Origin: an uncultured bacterium
GTDB lineage: Bacteria > Patescibacteriota > Minisyncoccia > Phycocordibacterales > PALSA-1337
DNA length: 18,288 nt
Reading direction: 5' to 3'
Assembly (NCBI GenBank): GCA_903905325.1
Contig: CAIVGA010000060.1
Span: 1 to 18,288 of the forward strand
In this document: positions 258 through 17,664 of the stretch, piece by piece
How positions within the stretch are numbered: position 1 is the stretch's first letter
Layout: each line of letters opens with the position of its first letter
The notes under the pieces: model-generated
The model's database searches: none
Seen by the model: only the letters and a program-made list of their open reading frames with translations
Told to the model about the DNA's origin: nothing
Made by a program: the position numbers and the translations under genes

Positions 258-974
258 TTAACTTAAAAGACCCAGACGTGCTTTTGCCGAAGCGAATACT
301 TGAGTTGGACTATTAAAAACACCAAACTTTTCCACGCCCAGTCGGAATCGTTCAATATCTCTTCGCGCATCGGAAAGCGTCTGTCCAGCAATGACAACTG
401 ACCCCTCATTCGAATTTGGATCGCTTTTAAGTGCTTTAAATGCATCTTCCAGAACAACCACGATAGAAGCGAGGTGAATTTGTGTTTCCAGGATTGATGC
501 TACAGTCCACTGGTCCGGACGAGCAACATACCGTGAATAGGGCTTGAGGTCGTTGATACTCTTTCTCAACTGTTCCAACTTCCAGCTAGTATCACCAAAG
601 TCAGCGACCGCATCCTTCATTTCTTGACTTTGGGGTCCGTGCACTTTGACAAACAGAAGGATCAATCCGAATACTGCCGGCACCACTGATACTAGCCAGT
701 AGATATGATTCGTATGGCAGAATATGCAGACCATGACCGCAACCAAACTCACGAGACAGCAAACAAAAGCGAAGATACCCCAACCAAATATGGTATTTCT
801 GCTTAAAATTAAAACATTGTTTGCATTCTGATTTCTCTCAATCAGACTTTTCAACGACTCGCCATCGAAGAATTTTCTGCAGAAATTGTCTAACAATTCA
901 TGCGACATGAGTTCAAACAGGTCGTGGAAACGTTTCTCCACAAGTATACGGACTCCGCTATTTTTCTCTTCCAT
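258..974 (-). CDS. Hypothetical integral membrane protein (two central TM helices, soluble N- and C-terminal regions)
   Basis: 238-codon ORF with ATG start. Hydrophobic segments IFGWGIFAFVCCLVSLVAVMVCIFC and IYWLVSVVPAVFGLILLFVKV. Followed by a terminator hairpin. No family recognised by eye. Confidence 0.6.
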   Translation of the reverse strand: MEEKNSGVRILVEKRFHDLFELMSHELLDNFCRKFFDGESLKSLIERNQNANNVLILSRNTIFGWGIFAFVCCLVSLVAVMVCIFCHTNHIYWLVSVVPAVFGLILLFVKVHGPQSQEMKDAVADFGDTSWKLEQLRKSINDLKPYSRYVARPDQWTVASILETQIHLASIVVVLEDAFKALKSDPNSNEGSVVIAGQTLSDARRDIERFRLGVEKFGVFNSPTQVFASAKARLGLLS

Positions 975-1009
975 TTTATTTACCTTTCAATACCTATATA
1001 GAACCATGG

Positions 1010-3286: not shown

Positions 3287-4357
3287 ATGAAAAAAACATA
3301 CCTAGCCGGCTTGGCCGTTGGTGTTATTGCAATTTCATTACCTTTTTTGGCCTTTGCAGAGATAAATCAACCCCCTTTTCCACCAGCCGGAGCAAACTTT
3401 CCACCCACAGGAACACCATTTGAACAAGACCAGCAACAAGCAAACCAGGGCCAACAAAAAAACACCGACCAGCAACCACCTAATGATCAACCAAATCTTC
3501 CTATTCCCCTTCCACCAGATTGTTTAGATTGTGCCCAACCAATTCCACCACCCACTGATCAACCCGTTAGTCCAACCAGCTCATTTCGTCAGCAGATAAG
3601 CGATGGTATAAGATCAAATGAGAATGCCCGCAATCTTCTTTTGCAAGGACGTCCAGAATATTCCTCCACATCAAATCAGTTGCCGCCTCAAGACCAACTA
3701 CCACCGCAAGATCCACAATATTTTGGCTCTACAACGCGTCCAGATTTTGGTTCTACAACCCACGAATATGACGGCACAAGCACACGCGATATGATGCCAA
3801 GAGGTGATCGACGCGGTCCACGCAATCTTCAAGATCCACGAAATCAAGATCTTCGAAACCTAGACGAGCAGGGTTCTAGTTCAAATCCACGCGGTTTGGA
3901 CCAAATCCAAAATAAAAGAGACCGTAAAGCTCTTCGTATCGATATGTTCAACCGTGAAAGAAATCACGTTGTCAGCCAGATGCAAGTTGCACTTAACAAT
4001 TTGAAGAATATTCGTGAAAGAATCGCTTCCAGGATTACAAAAATAGAGTCTAGTGGTGTTGATGTAACTGATACAAATACCCTACTCGCAACTGCTGATA
4101 CAAAAATCTCTGTTGCTCAAACAGCCATAGATACTTTGTCAGCTTTCACACCAACCGCAACGAGCACAGCAAGCACTTCCGCTATTAGTCTAGATAAGCC
4201 AAGACAGATTAGCGACAGTGCTATCAAGGCTGTCAAAGATGCGCATGAGGCACTTAACAATGTCGTGCAATCCATTGCCCACGACCTGGGAATCAACCTT
4301 CAAGAAAATGTGACATCTACTCCCCCCGAACCAAGTCCAGTTCAACTAGATCAATAA
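3287..4357 (+). CDS. Secreted proline/glutamine-rich low-complexity protein with C-terminal helical region
   Basis: The ORF track starts at 3278, but the ATG at 3287 gives a classic signal peptide, MKKTYLAGLAVGVIAISLPFLAFA. P/Q-rich repeats QLPPQD x2, FGSTT x2 and PRNLQD/PRNQD. The C-terminal part is predicted helical. Confidence 0.75.
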   Translation: MKKTYLAGLAVGVIAISLPFLAFAEINQPPFPPAGANFPPTGTPFEQDQQQANQGQQKNTDQQPPNDQPNLPIPLPPDCLDCAQPIPPPTDQPVSPTSSFRQQISDGIRSNENARNLLLQGRPEYSSTSNQLPPQDQLPPQDPQYFGSTTRPDFGSTTHEYDGTSTRDMMPRGDRRGPRNLQDPRNQDLRNLDEQGSSSNPRGLDQIQNKRDRKALRIDMFNRERNHVVSQMQVALNNLKNIRERIASRITKIESSGVDVTDTNTLLATADTKISVAQTAIDTLSAFTPTATSTASTSAISLDKPRQISDSAIKAVKDAHEALNNVVQSIAHDLGINLQENVTSTPPEPSPVQLDQ

Positions 4358-10433: not shown

Positions 10434-10606
10434 GAACGCAATTATACTCCTCAAAAAAATCCTGGGAACTTCCGCGTGTCAAAATTTTATTTCGTGGTGA
10501 GAAATTTGTCTACAAAAATTTGCTTAAAGTTTGTGGGGTAAAAGAAAAGCCCCACACAATTTCTTATGTGAGGCCGAGATTTAAGCATAATCTCGAAAGC
10601 GTTAGA

Positions 10607-11236
10607 CTATAACTCTCTGCCGTAAGACATTGCTTTCACTTCTGTCTTCAAGATATTTCTAAGGATTTGGAGGGGACTCTCCCCAGATTGGCGCTTAAAG
10701 ACAAGCCACTGCGCTTTGTCCCTGTATTCCCATCGGTGCGTAACACTCGCCCTGGTAGCAAGAAACTCTTGCAATTCCTTGACTCGTCTAATGCAGGCTG
10801 AGCAGTTGTTACATTCGAATAGTGTTACCTGGAGACGAATGTGACTTGGTCTATACACAAGTTGTCGATCACGTGTCCAACCACTTATATGCACTGTTGT
10901 GGCAGAACTTTCCAATAACTGTTTTGGTGTGTTGATTCTGACGATATCATATATTCCACTTCTCATCTTCCCAAGAGCTTCATCAAAATCTTTTGGCCAT
11001 AAAGCTCGGATTTCCTTTTGACTTACCTTTTTAGGTTTTTGGAATGCTGCGAATCTAATGCGGAAACACCCCAGATCTGGAACCGTTATCTGCGTCTCGT
11101 GATACATAGATTTCATACCACGAGGACGATATTCTCCTGTGCCAGACATAATTTTTGCCAGATCTTTACCAACAAAATATATGTCGTCAAGATTATCATC
11201 CTCACACTTGAATTTAACGAATGCCAATTTTTTCAT
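10607..11236 (-). CDS. Hypothetical protein (209 aa), unknown family; CxxCxxC and two H-x-T/S motifs
   Basis: Long ORF. The ATG at 11236 is preceded by AGGA, and the GTG at 11272 is less likely. Contains CNNCSAC, YHETQ and VHISG. No family recognised by eye. Confidence 0.6.
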   Translation of the reverse strand: MKKLAFVKFKCEDDNLDDIYFVGKDLAKIMSGTGEYRPRGMKSMYHETQITVPDLGCFRIRFAAFQKPKKVSQKEIRALWPKDFDEALGKMRSGIYDIVRINTPKQLLESSATTVHISGWTRDRQLVYRPSHIRLQVTLFECNNCSACIRRVKELQEFLATRASVTHRWEYRDKAQWLVFKRQSGESPLQILRNILKTEVKAMSYGREL

Positions 11237-11307
11237 GCGATTATCCTGTACTGGTGTATTGTTTGAGTACACCTACTTAAAACTCATATTTTTGTCAAAG
11301 AACTTCT

Positions 11308-11356
11308 CTGTTTCGCTCTTTTGAGCTCATCAGCCGAGACGCATATCTCGGGACAG
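11308..11356 (-). ncRNA. Type III hammerhead ribozyme, copy 1
   Basis: Minus strand: CUGUC|CCGAGA-uaugcg-UCUCGG-CUGAUGA-GCUC-aaaa-GAGC-GAA-ACAG. All conserved core nucleotides are present, with a GUC cleavage triplet. Stem I differs from copies 2 and 3 by compensatory changes. Confidence 0.85.
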
Positions 11357-11367
11357 TTTTTTATGTC

Positions 11368-11736
11368 TTAGATTTCTCTTTCTTTTATCTGTAGGAGGTG
11401 TAGGTGGAAGTGTCCAGGGATTGATTTCTGTTTGTGTGTGTTTTCAAGAATCATGTCGTATTTGTCGTTAATGTCTTTTTTAATTTCTTTAAATTCCCTT
11501 AATTCTTCTTCTGTGAGGTCATCCTCTATTGTGTGTCTTAGCGGCACTATCATGTCGTTCTTTGTATCTACCTCGTCGTAAGGAAACTCGTTTTCGATTT
11601 TTTTCCACCCTTTGTAAGTTTTTATTGGCTTCGCTGTGCAAATGTAGCAAGTTGGAAACTTTGGAGTTTTTTGGTATTTTTCGTAGTTTGTATGCGTTTC
11701 CAGAGTTCTTAGTGTTTTAACTTTTTGTGTAGTCAT
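11368..11736 (-). CDS. HIT (histidine triad) family nucleotide hydrolase/transferase-like protein
   Basis: 122 aa. N-terminal CYIC (compare the Hint CxxC), MIVPLRH (compare H.LviPkrH), and C-terminal triad SIPGHFHLHLLQ (HxHxHxx). AT-rich codon usage like the host. Confidence 0.6.
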   Translation of the reverse strand: MTTQKVKTLRTLETHTNYEKYQKTPKFPTCYICTAKPIKTYKGWKKIENEFPYDEVDTKNDMIVPLRHTIEDDLTEEELREFKEIKKDINDKYDMILENTHKQKSIPGHFHLHLLQIKEREI

Positions 11737-11783
11737 TTTTATTTGCCTTATTTGTTTTGATAATTTTTCGACCTTTATTTTTA

Positions 11784-11832
11784 CTGTTTCGCTCTTTTGA
11801 GCTCTTCAGGCAGGATCCACATCCTGCGACAG
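11784..11832 (-). ncRNA. Type III hammerhead ribozyme, copy 2
   Basis: Minus strand: CUGUC|GCAGGA-ugugga-UCCUGC-CUGAAGA-GCUC-aaaa-GAGC-GAA-ACAG. The only core difference is at the unconstrained N7 position (A instead of U). Confidence 0.85.
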
Positions 11833-11877
11833 AAGGGGTTTGGAGTAGAACCAAACCCCACCATTCAGCGTCACCTC

Positions 11878-12258
11878 CTAGAGTTCCCTGATTCGGACTC
11901 CCTTGCGCGGACCGATCCAGACTTCGAATTGCCTGTCTTCGAATCTGCCTCCAGTGCCATACCCAGGCTCACTCAAGTCGTGTTTCTTGAGCAGGCCACG
12001 CGCCCAAGCTTTCCGGCGAATGAGGAACTGGATCCTTCGATCTTCCCTGGAATCTGAGCCGATCTCGGTCCCCGTGTTTGCCCGCTCATACACACTCACC
12101 ATCGAGCAAACTTCTGCTGGTGCAGTGCGGTCGTTTCCTGGTATCGACACACGTGGTTGGATCTCGGGACCCTCCACCCTCCGGAAGACTTCAGAAAGTT
12201 GCTCTTTGGTGATTCTGCGAATCCACTGGTGACTTGTTTGTTTGTTGCGTGCGCTCAT
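11878..12258 (-). CDS. Doubtful ORF: 126-aa highly basic hypothetical protein, or a spurious ORF inside a GC-rich structured RNA
   Basis: ATG start preceded by AAGAAGG. First codon positions are purine-rich. However, the region is GC-rich with long ORFs in several frames on both strands and several strong hairpins. Confidence 0.3.
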   Translation of the reverse strand: MSARNKQTSHQWIRRITKEQLSEVFRRVEGPEIQPRVSIPGNDRTAPAEVCSMVSVYERANTGTEIGSDSREDRRIQFLIRRKAWARGLLKKHDLSEPGYGTGGRFEDRQFEVWIGPRKGVRIREL

Positions 12259-12323
12259 TTGTGCCTTCTTTCTGCCCCTTCCGGAGCGGTTGTTGGTTTG
12301 TTGGCTCGTTTCAAAGATCTATT

Positions 12324-12372
12324 CTGTTTCGCTCTTTTGAGCTCATCAGGCAGGACTCATATCCTGCGACAG
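12324..12372 (-). ncRNA. Type III hammerhead ribozyme, copy 3
   Basis: Minus strand: CUGUC|GCAGGA-uaugag-UCCUGC-CUGAUGA-GCUC-aaaa-GAGC-GAA-ACAG. Stem III can extend to 5 bp (UCUGU/ACAGA). Confidence 0.85.
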
Positions 12373-12600
12373 AGTGGGTGGACCCAGTGTGCTGTTTTCG
12401 CACCTGAGTCCAACCCACCTTTATCCAGACTTAGCTCGATCTAACCCAGTAGATCGATTCTCATCTGGTTCTCGGTTGCGTTGCCGAGGGGAGACCCGTA
12501 TCAGGGTTTACTCCCTTACGCCCAGCTGCTTCATGCAGCCCTGCGTTTCTAATGCACTCGTTTGCTAGTCGAGTGTTGTTTTCAAAGTCTTTCTTTCTCT
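12373..12600 (-). ncRNA. GC-rich structured leader RNA of unknown class upstream (5') of hammerhead copy 3
   Basis: Six back-to-back hairpins at 12374-12418, 12425-12468 (with nested 7-bp TCGATCT/AGATCGA), 12471-12488, 12489-12515, 12525-12539 and 12555-12575. About 60% GC on a hand-counted 60-nt sample. Strand is assigned only by adjacency to the hammerheads. Confidence 0.4.
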
Positions 12601-12794
12601 TCGTCTTTGGTCCGTTGAACAATATATATGAATAATCTTGACAATGCTGGTCAGACATGGTCTTTTTGTAATCAATTAAATAAAATTTGGCTCAAATACC
12701 TAAGCAGAGCCACATTCTTCGTGGTCTTAACTGTAACTTATAGTTACATATTTTATGTTTCAAAGCACAAAATACTCAATACGAGCCCAAATAC

Positions 12795-12823
12795 TTGCTT
12801 TAAACGCACCATAACTGTATATT
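12795..12823 (+). promoter_or_regulatory. Candidate promoter for the TrmB-like gene (TTGCTT-N17-TATATT)
   Basis: TTGCTT 12795-12800, 17-nt spacer, TATATT 12818-12823. An alternative leaderless-type -10 box, TAGAAT at 12851-12856, lies 6 nt before the ATG. Confidence 0.4.
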
Positions 12824-12862
12824 ACTAGTGTACAAATTATTACACTTCAATAGAATAAATAT

Positions 12863-13591
12863 ATGGATAAAAACAAGGTTTTAGAGAAAATTGGCCTAAC
12901 AAAAAACGAAAGCGCTATATATTTGGCCCTCGTAGAGCTTGGTCCATCAAACATATCCAAGATTTCACAGAAAACCGCCATACATAGACCACTCATTTAT
13001 AAAGCACTTCCTTCCCTACTAGAAAAGAAGCTCATTACACAGAATCATCGTCAAAACAGAATGATCTACATGGCTGAACCACCAAACAGGCTTGAGGCAA
13101 TCTTTGATGATTTAAAAATTGACCTATTCGAGATTCTGCCAGATCTTGAAGACTCATATTCAAGCAATGAGCAGAAACCAAAAGTCAGGTTTCTTGAAGG
13201 CAAAGACGGAACAAAGAGAATATTTGATGACATTGTAAGAAGTCTCAAAAAGGGAGATGTATTTTATAGATATAGCTCAAACCGTGATGGCCAAGAGAAA
13301 AAAGACAAGTATGTACCACGTGGATACAGGAAAATGCGTGATGCTAAACAACTTCAGAGAGAGGTCATAACAAATGAACAAACTTCAAAGCATAAAATCC
13401 AGAAGCTAGACCGCTTTGTTAAGACAATGCCGGGAGATTTCGGACCTTTTGAGCACAACGTGACTGAGGTCATATATGGAAACAAGGTGGCTTTCATCGA
13501 CTACAACTCGGAAACTGCTATGGTTATAGAGAGTAAGAGAATAGCAGAGTTTCAAAAACACATTTTCAAGATGTTTTATAAGAAATTATAG
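12863..13591 (+). CDS. TrmB-family winged-helix transcriptional regulator
   Basis: The N-terminus LGLTKNESAIYLALVELGPSNISKISQKTAIHRPLIYKALPSLLEKKLI matches the TrmB-type wHTH pattern. 242 aa. Confidence 0.8.
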   Translation: MDKNKVLEKIGLTKNESAIYLALVELGPSNISKISQKTAIHRPLIYKALPSLLEKKLITQNHRQNRMIYMAEPPNRLEAIFDDLKIDLFEILPDLEDSYSSNEQKPKVRFLEGKDGTKRIFDDIVRSLKKGDVFYRYSSNRDGQEKKDKYVPRGYRKMRDAKQLQREVITNEQTSKHKIQKLDRFVKTMPGDFGPFEHNVTEVIYGNKVAFIDYNSETAMVIESKRIAEFQKHIFKMFYKKL

Positions 13592-16011: not shown

Positions 16012-16085
16012 TGGTGCGGGATAGGAGAGTCGAACTCCTCACCACAGTTTGGAAAACTGTTATTATACCGATTAACTAATCCCGC
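16012..16085 (-). tRNA. tRNA-Gly (anticodon UCC), CCA encoded
   Basis: Hand-folded cloverleaf: acceptor GCGGGAU/AUCCCGC, anticodon stem ACAGU/ACUGU with loop UUUCCAA, T-loop UUCGACU, and 3' ACCA. 74 nt. Confidence 0.95.
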
Positions 16086-16617: not shown

Positions 16618-16690
16618 TCGGGGCGCCGGGATTCGAACCCGGAGTCACCTCTTCCCAAAAGAGGCATGTTAGCCGTTACACCACGCCCCG
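16618..16690 (-). tRNA. tRNA-Pro (anticodon UGG), no encoded CCA
   Basis: Hand-folded: acceptor CGGGGCG/CGCCCCG, anticodon stem CCUCU/AGAGG with loop UUUGGGA, T-arm CCGGG-UUCGAAU-CCCGG. 73 nt. Confidence 0.95.
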
Positions 16691-17438: not shown

Positions 17439-17509
17439 TGCGGGTAGGGAGAATCGAACTCCCACCTCGTCCTTGGCAAGGACGCGTCCTACCACTAAAC
17501 GATACCCGC
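17439..17509 (-). tRNA. tRNA-Gly (anticodon GCC), no encoded CCA
   Basis: Hand-folded: acceptor GCGGGUA/UACCCGC, anticodon stem CGUCC/GGACG with loop UUGCCAA, T-arm GGGAG-UUCGAUU-CUCCC. 71 nt. Confidence 0.95.
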
Positions 17510-17591: not shown

Positions 17592-17664
17592 TGCGCCCGG
17601 TAGGACTCGAACCTACAACCCCTTGGTCCGAAGCCAAGTGCTCTATCCTTTGAGCCACGGGCGC
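17592..17664 (-). tRNA. tRNA-Arg (anticodon UCG), no encoded CCA
   Basis: Hand-folded: acceptor GCGCCCG/CGGGCGC, anticodon stem CUUGG/CCAAG with loop CUUCGGA, T-arm GUAGG-UUCGAGU-CCUAC. 73 nt. Confidence 0.95.

Follow-up and report, generated by a model that had tools for sequence, protein, structure and literature searches.

Clustered hammerhead ribozymes flank single genes in prophage-like regions and cleave polycistronic RNA both in vitro and in vivo (Perreault et al. 2011, PMC3088659). Multi-hammerhead arrays around variable genes beside a winged-helix regulator in phage-like regions are already known (PMC3088659), and the purpose of self-cleaving ribozymes between bacterial or phage genes is still open (PMC6765202). 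Here, we analysed an array of this kind in an 18,288-nucleotide (nt) contig of an uncultured bacterium of the Patescibacteriota (CAIVGA010000060.1; the whole stretch is called the window below), with the focus on a GC-rich block at 11833-12600. All features of this block are on the minus strand, amid three type-III hammerheads (12321-12375, 11781-11835 and 11305-11359). As in the described clusters, hammerheads of the same strand separate short, locus-variable genes, a winged-helix regulator and phage-type genes (here Bro-N) are near, and the expected result is the processing of polycistronic RNA into single-gene pieces. The order along the minus-strand transcript is leader, hammerhead, open reading frame (ORF) of 126 amino acids (aa), hammerhead, 122-aa ORF, hammerhead, 209/221-aa ORF and Bro-N gene.

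An initial annotation, made from the letters of this DNA, had read the block as a candidate for a single structured RNA of about 770 nt. About one third of the block survives as a genuine small RNA motif, which is functionally opaque. The explanation that we favour, with a probability of about 0.65, is that the block comprises two adjacent cassettes of one ribozyme-cut minus-strand operon, of which one specifies a non-coding hairpin RNA and the other contains a gene for a 126-aa protein.

The hairpin leader and its copies

The leader of the array (about 12376-12592) is non-coding, exceptionally structured and conserved. Its GC-rich part starts with the motif AAAGACUUUGAAAAC (12578-12592, minus strand), the same motif that is usually found after a hammerhead, and continues with a conserved non-coding block of five hairpins (12421-12578, minus strand): H1 (12555-12575), H2 (12518-12546), H3 (12489-12515), H4 (12471-12488) and H5 (12425-12468; 5 + 8 base pairs, bp). 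A sixth hairpin, H6 (12376-12416, minus strand; 4 + 8 + 4 bp, -26.3 kcal/mol, z -5.9 for 45 nt), is located immediately 5' of hammerhead 1 and outside the block that is common to the window and the related locus L123. The minus strand of 12376-12625 folds with -95.6 kcal/mol (z = -7.25). When the whole contig was scanned in 250-nt sliding windows on both strands against dinucleotide shuffles (n = 290 windows), this segment ranked first with a z of -7.5, the mean being -0.54 and the standard deviation 1.5. Every hairpin listed in the initial annotation was found at its place or a few bases away from it, namely H5, H6, GGGGUUUGG/CCAAACCCC at 11835-11859, CAGAYUUCGAA.../UUCGAA at 11917-11946 and CUCAAG/CUUGAG at 11971-11991. 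Moreover, as had been noted, two hammerheads (at 12375 and 11835) do have a hairpin directly next to the 5' strand of their stem III.

No ORF with a ribosome-binding site is present in the leader. A 65-aa ORF at 12461-12658 was considered and rejected, as it is without such a site, is not called by the contig's gene caller, and would have its frame broken by 1-nt loop indels in the related locus L134. A 22-codon ORF with a good Shine-Dalgarno sequence in L134 was also rejected for the window, which has ACG there instead of AUG. H5 was tried as a hammerhead (CAGAUGAGA...) and discarded, its topology being wrong and an A standing where U4 is expected. We searched the 4227 Rfam families with cmscan, using the gathering score on the window and E<=10 on 10800-13000 and on 12360-12640 (281 nt). 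In 11836-12640 nothing was matched beyond the hammerheads and one chance hairpin match, and there was no Rfam match to GOLLD, ROOL, HEARO, OLE, raiA, tmRNA, RNase P, the signal recognition particle RNA or introns. The leader remains without an Rfam family even at E<=10. The initial annotation's description of a structured RNA of no known class fits the leader (12376-12592; z -7.25, H1-H5 conserved) and does not fit the rest of the block.

The gene adjacent to the array encodes a TrmB-like protein, through which we retrieved 25 related metagenome loci (L123-L147). These loci encode proteins 75-99 % identical to it, making the TrmB-like gene the conserved anchor of such loci. The hairpin block is present in three of the 25 (L123, L134 and L135, the last two being mutually identical). 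In L123, where the TrmB-like protein is 99 % identical in aa, the DNA is 86 % identical over H1-H5, as far as position 12422 of the window. From these first two copies we derived a covariance model (R1), in which L123 scores 197 bits; with L134/L135, where the TrmB-like protein is 76 % identical in aa, the model scored 68.8 bits (E 3e-17). RNAalifold independently gives the identical five hairpins, H1-H5. Across the three distinct sequences, 96.8 % of the pair cells are canonical. Changes on both sides occurred in 6 of 43 pairs as compared with 0 in slid controls, and 4 of 500 shuffles reached the observed value, in an alignment of three sequences that was fitted to the structure. Stems among the copies are invariant or compensated, while loops, bulges and linkers vary, with 1-nt indels in loops. 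Between lineages, the block is about 77 % identical and the TrmB and 122-aa protein (p122) genes are 70-76 % identical (DNA), while the flanking AT-rich intergenic DNA is unalignable. The block was assigned to the minus strand because its orientation matches that of the ribozymes and ORFs in all three loci.

Searches of 116 hammerhead-bearing loci by blastn and nhmmer with the leader and the ORF region gave no match, and model R1 revealed no further copy of the block in them. Two degenerate block patterns gave 0 matches and 15 chance matches on viral contigs, and blastn and tblastn against GenBank phages gave none.

The protein gene in the middle of the block

The segment 11878-12258 (minus strand, 381 nt) codes for a protein of 126 aa, p126, with a conserved C-terminal domain (residues 71-126) of an uncharacterised family. 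The 5' untranslated region (UTR) of the gene (12259-12320, minus strand) contains the motif AGAUCUUUGAAAC (12308-12320) and a small hairpin of GCUCC-GGAA-GGGGC, and 5 nt before the AUG there is a Shine-Dalgarno sequence (AAGAAGG). In its 3' UTR, a GC-rich hairpin of 9 bp (GGGGUUUGG/CCAAACCCC, 11835-11859, minus strand) adjoins hammerhead 2. A word-indexed protein search with the 126-aa ORF found identical copies only; 21 homologues, matching residues 71-126 (44-61 % identity, E 5e-11 to 9e-4), came from an exhaustive HMMER phmmer search of 1.84 billion representatives. The C-terminal motif is RRKxWARxLL..GL[ST]xPG..G.FE...F.V.IGPR.GVRI, with 7 invariant columns in the alignment. Many homologues have an N-terminal CxxC...CxxC zinc ribbon, which p126 is without. 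Matches to curated families are confined to the N-terminal ribbons of some homologues, and the conserved domain of p126 has no relative in Pfam, PHROG, PDB or BFVD.

Codon-periodic conservation, which the initial annotation had named as the result that would refute an RNA in favour of a protein gene, was found for 11878-12258: nucleotide identity at codon positions 1/2/3 is 62/69/36 % (4 homologous genes with DNA, 212 codon comparisons), and different codons are used at 71 of 119 residues identical between p126 and these four gene products. With the 21-sequence alignment, AlphaFold2 modelled residues 70-126 as one helix and a three-stranded sheet, with values of the predicted local distance difference test (pLDDT) of 93-98; a single-sequence model was uninformative (pLDDT 37). 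The idea of a single RNA of about 770 nt thus fails on its middle 381 nt, with their 21 homologues, their codon-periodic conservation and their confident domain model. The block had also been called hairpin-saturated. This holds for about 12376-12580 and for the 3' hairpin at 11835-11859; it does not hold for the middle of about 380 nt, as fold windows of the coding sequence (within 11876-12375) have z from -1.8 to +1.3, and the inter-hammerhead segment 11836-12320 has a z of -1.5. Long ORFs do occur on both strands, as the initial annotation had noted, one of 126 aa on the minus strand and others of 109, 95 and 86 aa on the plus strand.

The GC contrast is real, though the initial annotation had overstated it at 57-60 % against 28 %: GC is 52.9 % in 11833-12600 (300-nt window peak 56.7 %), 35.8 % in the 122-aa gene and 41.4 % in the whole window. 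Within L119, a close relative, the GC of cassettes ranges from 30 to 56 %, and genes of the p126 family are GC-richer than their own contigs in all four cases. The raised GC reflects foreign, shuffled cassettes and not RNA structure. For annotation, the lesson is that GC-rich islands found beside ribozymes in AT-rich genomes consist for the most part of imported coding sequence.

Ribozymes and exchangeable cassettes

The three hammerheads that the initial annotation had recognised are real by Rfam and by their cores. Hammerhead 1 (12321-12375, minus strand) scores 45.7 bits with Hammerhead_3 (RF00008; E 2.9e-8), with predicted cleavage after C12368 (12368/12367). Hammerhead 2 (11781-11835, minus strand) scores 38.1 bits (E 4e-6), has the core CUGAAGA (N7 = A), and would be cleaved at 11828/11827. 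For hammerhead 3 (11305-11359, minus strand) the score is 35.1 bits and the predicted cleavage 11352/11351. The matches were obtained at a relaxed threshold (E 3e-8 to 3e-5) and are under the Rfam gathering score of 48.5, because stem III and the stem II loop are short. A hammerhead core is defined as C3 U4 G5 A6 N7 G8 A9 ... G12 A13 A14 ... A15.1-U16.1, H17 (PMC3088659), and the core consensus is intact in all three copies: CUGA(U/A)GA-[GCUC AAAA GAGC]-GAAA-CAG, with ...CUG-U-C 5' of stem I.

The stem-II/core string CTGANGAGCTCAAAAGAGCGAAAC was found as an exact match in 30 viral contigs and 84 genome contigs, and nearly all of the latter are Patescibacteria metagenome-assembled genomes (MAGs). 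Among 129 instances of this subtype (114 distinct), the sequences of stem I are diverse yet complementary, that is, they covary; stems I and II are looped and stem III is open. In the literature, we found no paper connecting hammerheads with Patescibacteria. The motif AAAG[U/A]UCUUU[G/A]AAA follows 36 of the 114 distinct hammerheads at a distance of 4-9 nt, as compared with a background of 4.5 %. It is also present at cassette starts without a ribozyme; its sites are 12308-12320, 11290-11304 and 12578-12592 in the window, and the 5' UTRs of L119, L121, L123 and L125.

The cassettes are modular and behave as exchangeable units, even where the product of the anchor gene is 99 % identical in aa. 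In L124, the promoter-proximal part of the array (window 12672-12605) is fused directly to a p126-type 5' UTR (12302-12254), and 12303-12604 are missing; therefore, 12303-12604, with the hairpins and a hammerhead, is a discrete module. In L123, a 5'-UTR motif comes after the block, then a 48-aa ORF and then a hammerhead, and no ribozyme separates block and ORF. In L134, the block is the second unit, after an 80-aa ORF and a hammerhead look-alike and before further hairpins and a twister-P1 ribozyme (L134 3074-3131, minus strand; 49 bits against a gathering score of 67.2, E 7e-8 to 5e-10). This twister occupies the place of window hammerhead 11781-11835, upstream of a homologue of the 122-aa gene that is 80 % identical (aa), and ribozyme classes, thus, appear interchangeable at one cassette boundary.

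Genes of the p122, p126 and p221-C families are patchy among the TrmB-anchored loci, and L119 has a p126-family gene at a different slot, in a six-hammerhead array. L123, despite the 99 % identity of its TrmB-like protein, has other content, namely the 48-aa ORF, a terminator, one p221-C-like ORF and a pair resembling HigB/HigA. The hammerhead look-alike of L134 (about 3400-3450, minus strand), just upstream of the block, has the core CCGACGAG with C for U4 and may be an inactive or a tolerated variant. A common 5' UTR (AACAACCGCUCCG..AGGGGCA..AAGG..AAUG), with a small hairpin before the Shine-Dalgarno sequence, stands before unrelated ORFs (window 12259-12302, L124 311-363 and L123 about 3495-3540, all minus strand), which suggests recombination breakpoints inside UTRs. 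L125 has an ORF-less, hairpin-rich unit of about 165 nt between two hammerheads (835-1002, minus strand), unrelated in sequence to the leader of the window. In L121, the segment 3010-3400 (plus strand) is within an 800-nt stretch between the TrmB-like and p126-family genes. This stretch has a strong promoter (TTGACA-17-TATACT), a 42-aa ORF preceded by a perfect Shine-Dalgarno sequence, and a GC-rich part laden with hairpins, and no ribozyme was detected in it.

The contig is bacterial, is recorded in ENA as ERZ27313057 k141_285755, and has genes for HU, RNase Y, trigger factor, ClpP and H+-PPase. The TrmB-like winged-helix regulator gene (12863-13591, plus strand; Pfam PF01978, E 2e-14) is divergent from the array, and its product and a protein encoded on a 476-kb contig of a Candidatus Paceibacterota MAG are 75 % identical in aa. 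Most of the 25 TrmB-like-anchored loci have hammerheads on the divergent strand. A candidate promoter box (12621-12644, minus strand), divergent from the TrmB-like gene, consists of TTGTCA (12644-12639), 12 nt and TATATT (12626-12621), and the layout TTGTCAA...TATAT/TATTAT is also present in L123, L124 and L134. The next cassette, 11305-11736, contains the third hammerhead and the 122-aa gene (11368-11736, minus strand), the product of which is 79-80 % identical in aa to those of genes in L119, L133 and L134. The 122-aa protein is without a match in Pfam or PHROG at E<=0.01 but bears HFHLHLL, a HIT-like motif, towards the C-terminus. The 221-aa ORF follows (10607-11272, minus strand); the arrays of L123, L125, L119 and L129 encode its C-terminal 90 or so residues (CxxC..CxxC) separately, as small proteins of their own. 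Four tRNA genes were found on the minus strand (16015-16085, 16618-16690, 17439-17509 and 17592-17664; 59-71 bits). Among the direct repeats in 10500-13200, the three hammerheads are the only family of note. A type III toxin-antitoxin RNA or another tandem-repeat RNA was rejected, as tandem direct repeats were not found in 10500-13200.

Readings of the leader and comparison with known systems

According to the explanation that we favour, transcription would start near the TTGTCA-12-TATATT box (12644-12621) and proceed away from the TrmB-like gene, in a Patescibacteria-type genome, and each hammerhead would cleave after C17 (12368/12367, 11828/11827 and 11352/11351). We propose cleavage because the cores are intact and clustered hammerheads elsewhere are active (PMC3088659). 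Cassette 1 (about 12368-12592) would comprise the A-rich 5' motif, H1-H5 and H6, and no ORF. A co-transcriptional cut after C12368 would yield a nearly all-helical RNA of about 230-250 nt that ends in a 2',3'-cyclic phosphate just past H6, which would form the 3'-terminal hairpin of the freed leader. Cassette 2 (12367-11828, 540 nt) would be an mRNA that encodes the 126-aa protein, with a compact hammerhead body and a 5'-OH at its 5' end, and with its 3' end just past the GGGGUUUGG hairpin, at the hammerhead 2 cut. RNAs with 5'-OH ends and terminal hairpins generally decay more slowly by the 5'-monophosphate-dependent and 3'-exonucleolytic routes. The freed leader would be non-coding and stable, and its most likely role would be that of a protein-binding scaffold or decoy; we prefer such a role because the helices, and not the loops, are conserved, and because no ORF is attached to the block in two of three contexts. 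What we infer from these features is the promoter, that cleavage does take place, that it frees the leader as a stable RNA, and that this RNA has any role in trans.

Several observations weigh against this explanation. Self-cleavage of the hammerheads is a prediction, their scores being under the Rfam gathering threshold. A scan for the sigma-70 consensus did not call the box at 12644-12621, its sole call being a weak TTGAGT-18-TAAAAT at 12779-12750. The hairpin block is known from just three distinct copies, the alignment used for the pair counts was fitted to the structure, and the 7 G-U against 4 A-C pairs do not decide the strand by count. In L123, the block would be the 5' UTR of the 48-aa ORF and not a free RNA. 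The N-terminal 70 residues of p126 are unconserved and poorly modelled. No partner protein or target is known for the leader RNA. Finally, a hairpin with z < -2 precedes a hammerhead in 33 % of cases as compared with 17 % (110 hammerheads, p = 0.03), which is a modest trend. That a GC hairpin invariably precedes each hammerhead was rejected, as this trend is weak.

The main rival, which we consider doubtful, is an action of the leader in cis. As a 5' leader, it would then make the operon transcript more stable or modulate how this is transcribed or translated, for instance as a 5' stem-loop barrier to RNases or a binding platform for a regulator. The block is promoter-proximal and beside the TrmB-like gene in the window and in L123, where it is continuous with the 5' UTR of the 48-aa ORF, and RNase Y is encoded nearby. 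However, in the window a hammerhead with an intact core parts the block from every ORF, and once cut off, the leader would be unable to protect the mRNA; moreover, in L134 the block is the second cassette, between the hammerhead look-alike and the twister, and has no ORF attached. It is improbable that the leader is a non-functional relic, a pile of 3'-UTR hairpins and ribozyme fragments left by cassette recombination. The conservation of the block between lineages, at about 77 % like that of coding genes while the AT-rich flanks are unalignable, and the retention of its stems through six double changes while the loops drift, argue against such a relic, even though the arrays are highly recombinogenic, GC hairpins are common before ribozymes, and the family is tiny, with neither function nor partner known.

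As to DNA, the hairpins could also be palindromes that act as TrmB-like operators, recombination sites or a single-strand origin. The opposite strand of the leader folds nearly as well as the minus strand (z -6.04 versus -7.25), the counts of G-U and A-C pairs are not decisive, and the block is less than 700 nt from the TrmB gene in all three contexts. Yet the six palindromes differ in sequence, so that one dimeric regulator would not bind all of them, and G-U pairs, bulges and nested stems would be meaningless in duplex DNA. Additionally, the orientation to ribozymes and ORFs is constant in the three contexts, and no recombinase gene is present in the 16-kb neighbourhood, which makes a role at the DNA level very improbable. 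New ribozyme classes have been discovered by looking beside known ribozymes (PMC5737381, PMC4604425), and the initial annotation had suggested one in this flank. The leader is situated among ribozymes, and in L123 the block precedes the '...AAAAGUUCUUUAC' motif, which normally comes after a hammerhead. However, the leader is a string of independent hairpins with neither a multi-helix junction nor a pseudoknot, its unpaired segments all vary while its stems are fixed, it has no Rfam match at E<=10 to twister, twister-sister, pistol, hatchet, hairpin or hepatitis delta virus-like ribozymes, and a normal hammerhead comes next in the window; a new self-cleaving class is, thus, hardly credible here. 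The reading of the whole of 11833-12600 as one large structured non-coding RNA, with the 126-aa ORF as a by-product of stop-poor, GC-rich sequence, is refuted. GC is raised throughout, ORFs occur in several frames, and there are strong local helices in the ORF. But this ORF has protein homologues, codon-periodic divergence and a confident domain model, its stability does not exceed that of shuffles, a hammerhead divides the block, and the helix at 11917-11946 falls on the codons of RFEDRQFEV, with two copies of the palindromic dicodon UUCGAA (Phe-Glu).

Our preferred reading, of a non-coding hairpin cassette next to a protein-coding one, has an extension that we regard as tentative and on the whole unlikely, namely that non-coding RNAs which ribozymes release and which act in trans form a class of their own. 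Hypervariable, TrmB-anchored arrays of Patescibacteria would carry them as mobile RNA cassettes, with a hammerhead or, interchangeably, a twister at the boundaries, and would amount to an integron-like accessory-gene system at the RNA level. This block would, if that speculative view were right, be the first described member of the class.

The array resembles an integron in that a conserved anchor gene and a promoter are followed by variable, short, mostly single-ORF modules of mixed composition with a repeated structured element at their boundaries. Some integron cassettes are non-coding. Unlike in an integron, the called genes of the 16-kb neighbourhood do not include an integrase, attC sites are absent, and the boundary element is a ribozyme, which acts on RNA. 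It is our guess that cassettes are exchanged via recombination between the repeated ribozyme sequences of about 60 nt. Like retrozymes and viroid-like circular RNAs (PMC4918200, PMC5680766), the unit of cassette 2 lies between two type-III hammerheads with short stem III, and, once excised, the 540-nt unit could form pairs again between its 3' end and the 5'-terminal hammerhead body. In contrast to retrozymes, this unit is an mRNA for a conserved protein with an ordinary fold (z -1.5), and not a rod-like or branched non-coding RNA, and it has no long terminal repeats, reverse transcriptase or tandem identical repeats. With orphan non-coding RNA motifs (ROOL, raiA, drum and DUF3800 motifs; Weinberg et al. 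2017, PMC5737381) the leader shares a conserved structure and a mobile or phage-like context. It differs from them in being without an Rfam match, in consisting of linear, simple hairpins with no conserved loops or junctions, in being bounded by ribozymes and not by a terminator, and in having three distinct copies only.

The closest described system is that of the hammerhead clusters in prophage-like regions (PMC3088659). In contrast to these, the hammerheads here are of type III with a stem III of 3-4 bp, the hosts are Patescibacteria MAGs, the anchor is TrmB-like, at least one cassette is an ORF-less conserved hairpin unit, and one junction that has a hammerhead in the window has a twister in L134. 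What is new, then, is the Patescibacteria setting, the TrmB-anchored hypervariable arrays with hammerhead/twister exchange, a hairpin cassette that is conserved, non-coding and unmatched in Rfam, and an uncharacterised family of small proteins. As this locus shows, ribozyme arrays are common in Patescibacteria, and a cassette can be a conserved structured RNA rather than a gene. If the freed hairpin RNA is functional, such arrays would make defined small RNAs besides the monocistronic mRNAs.

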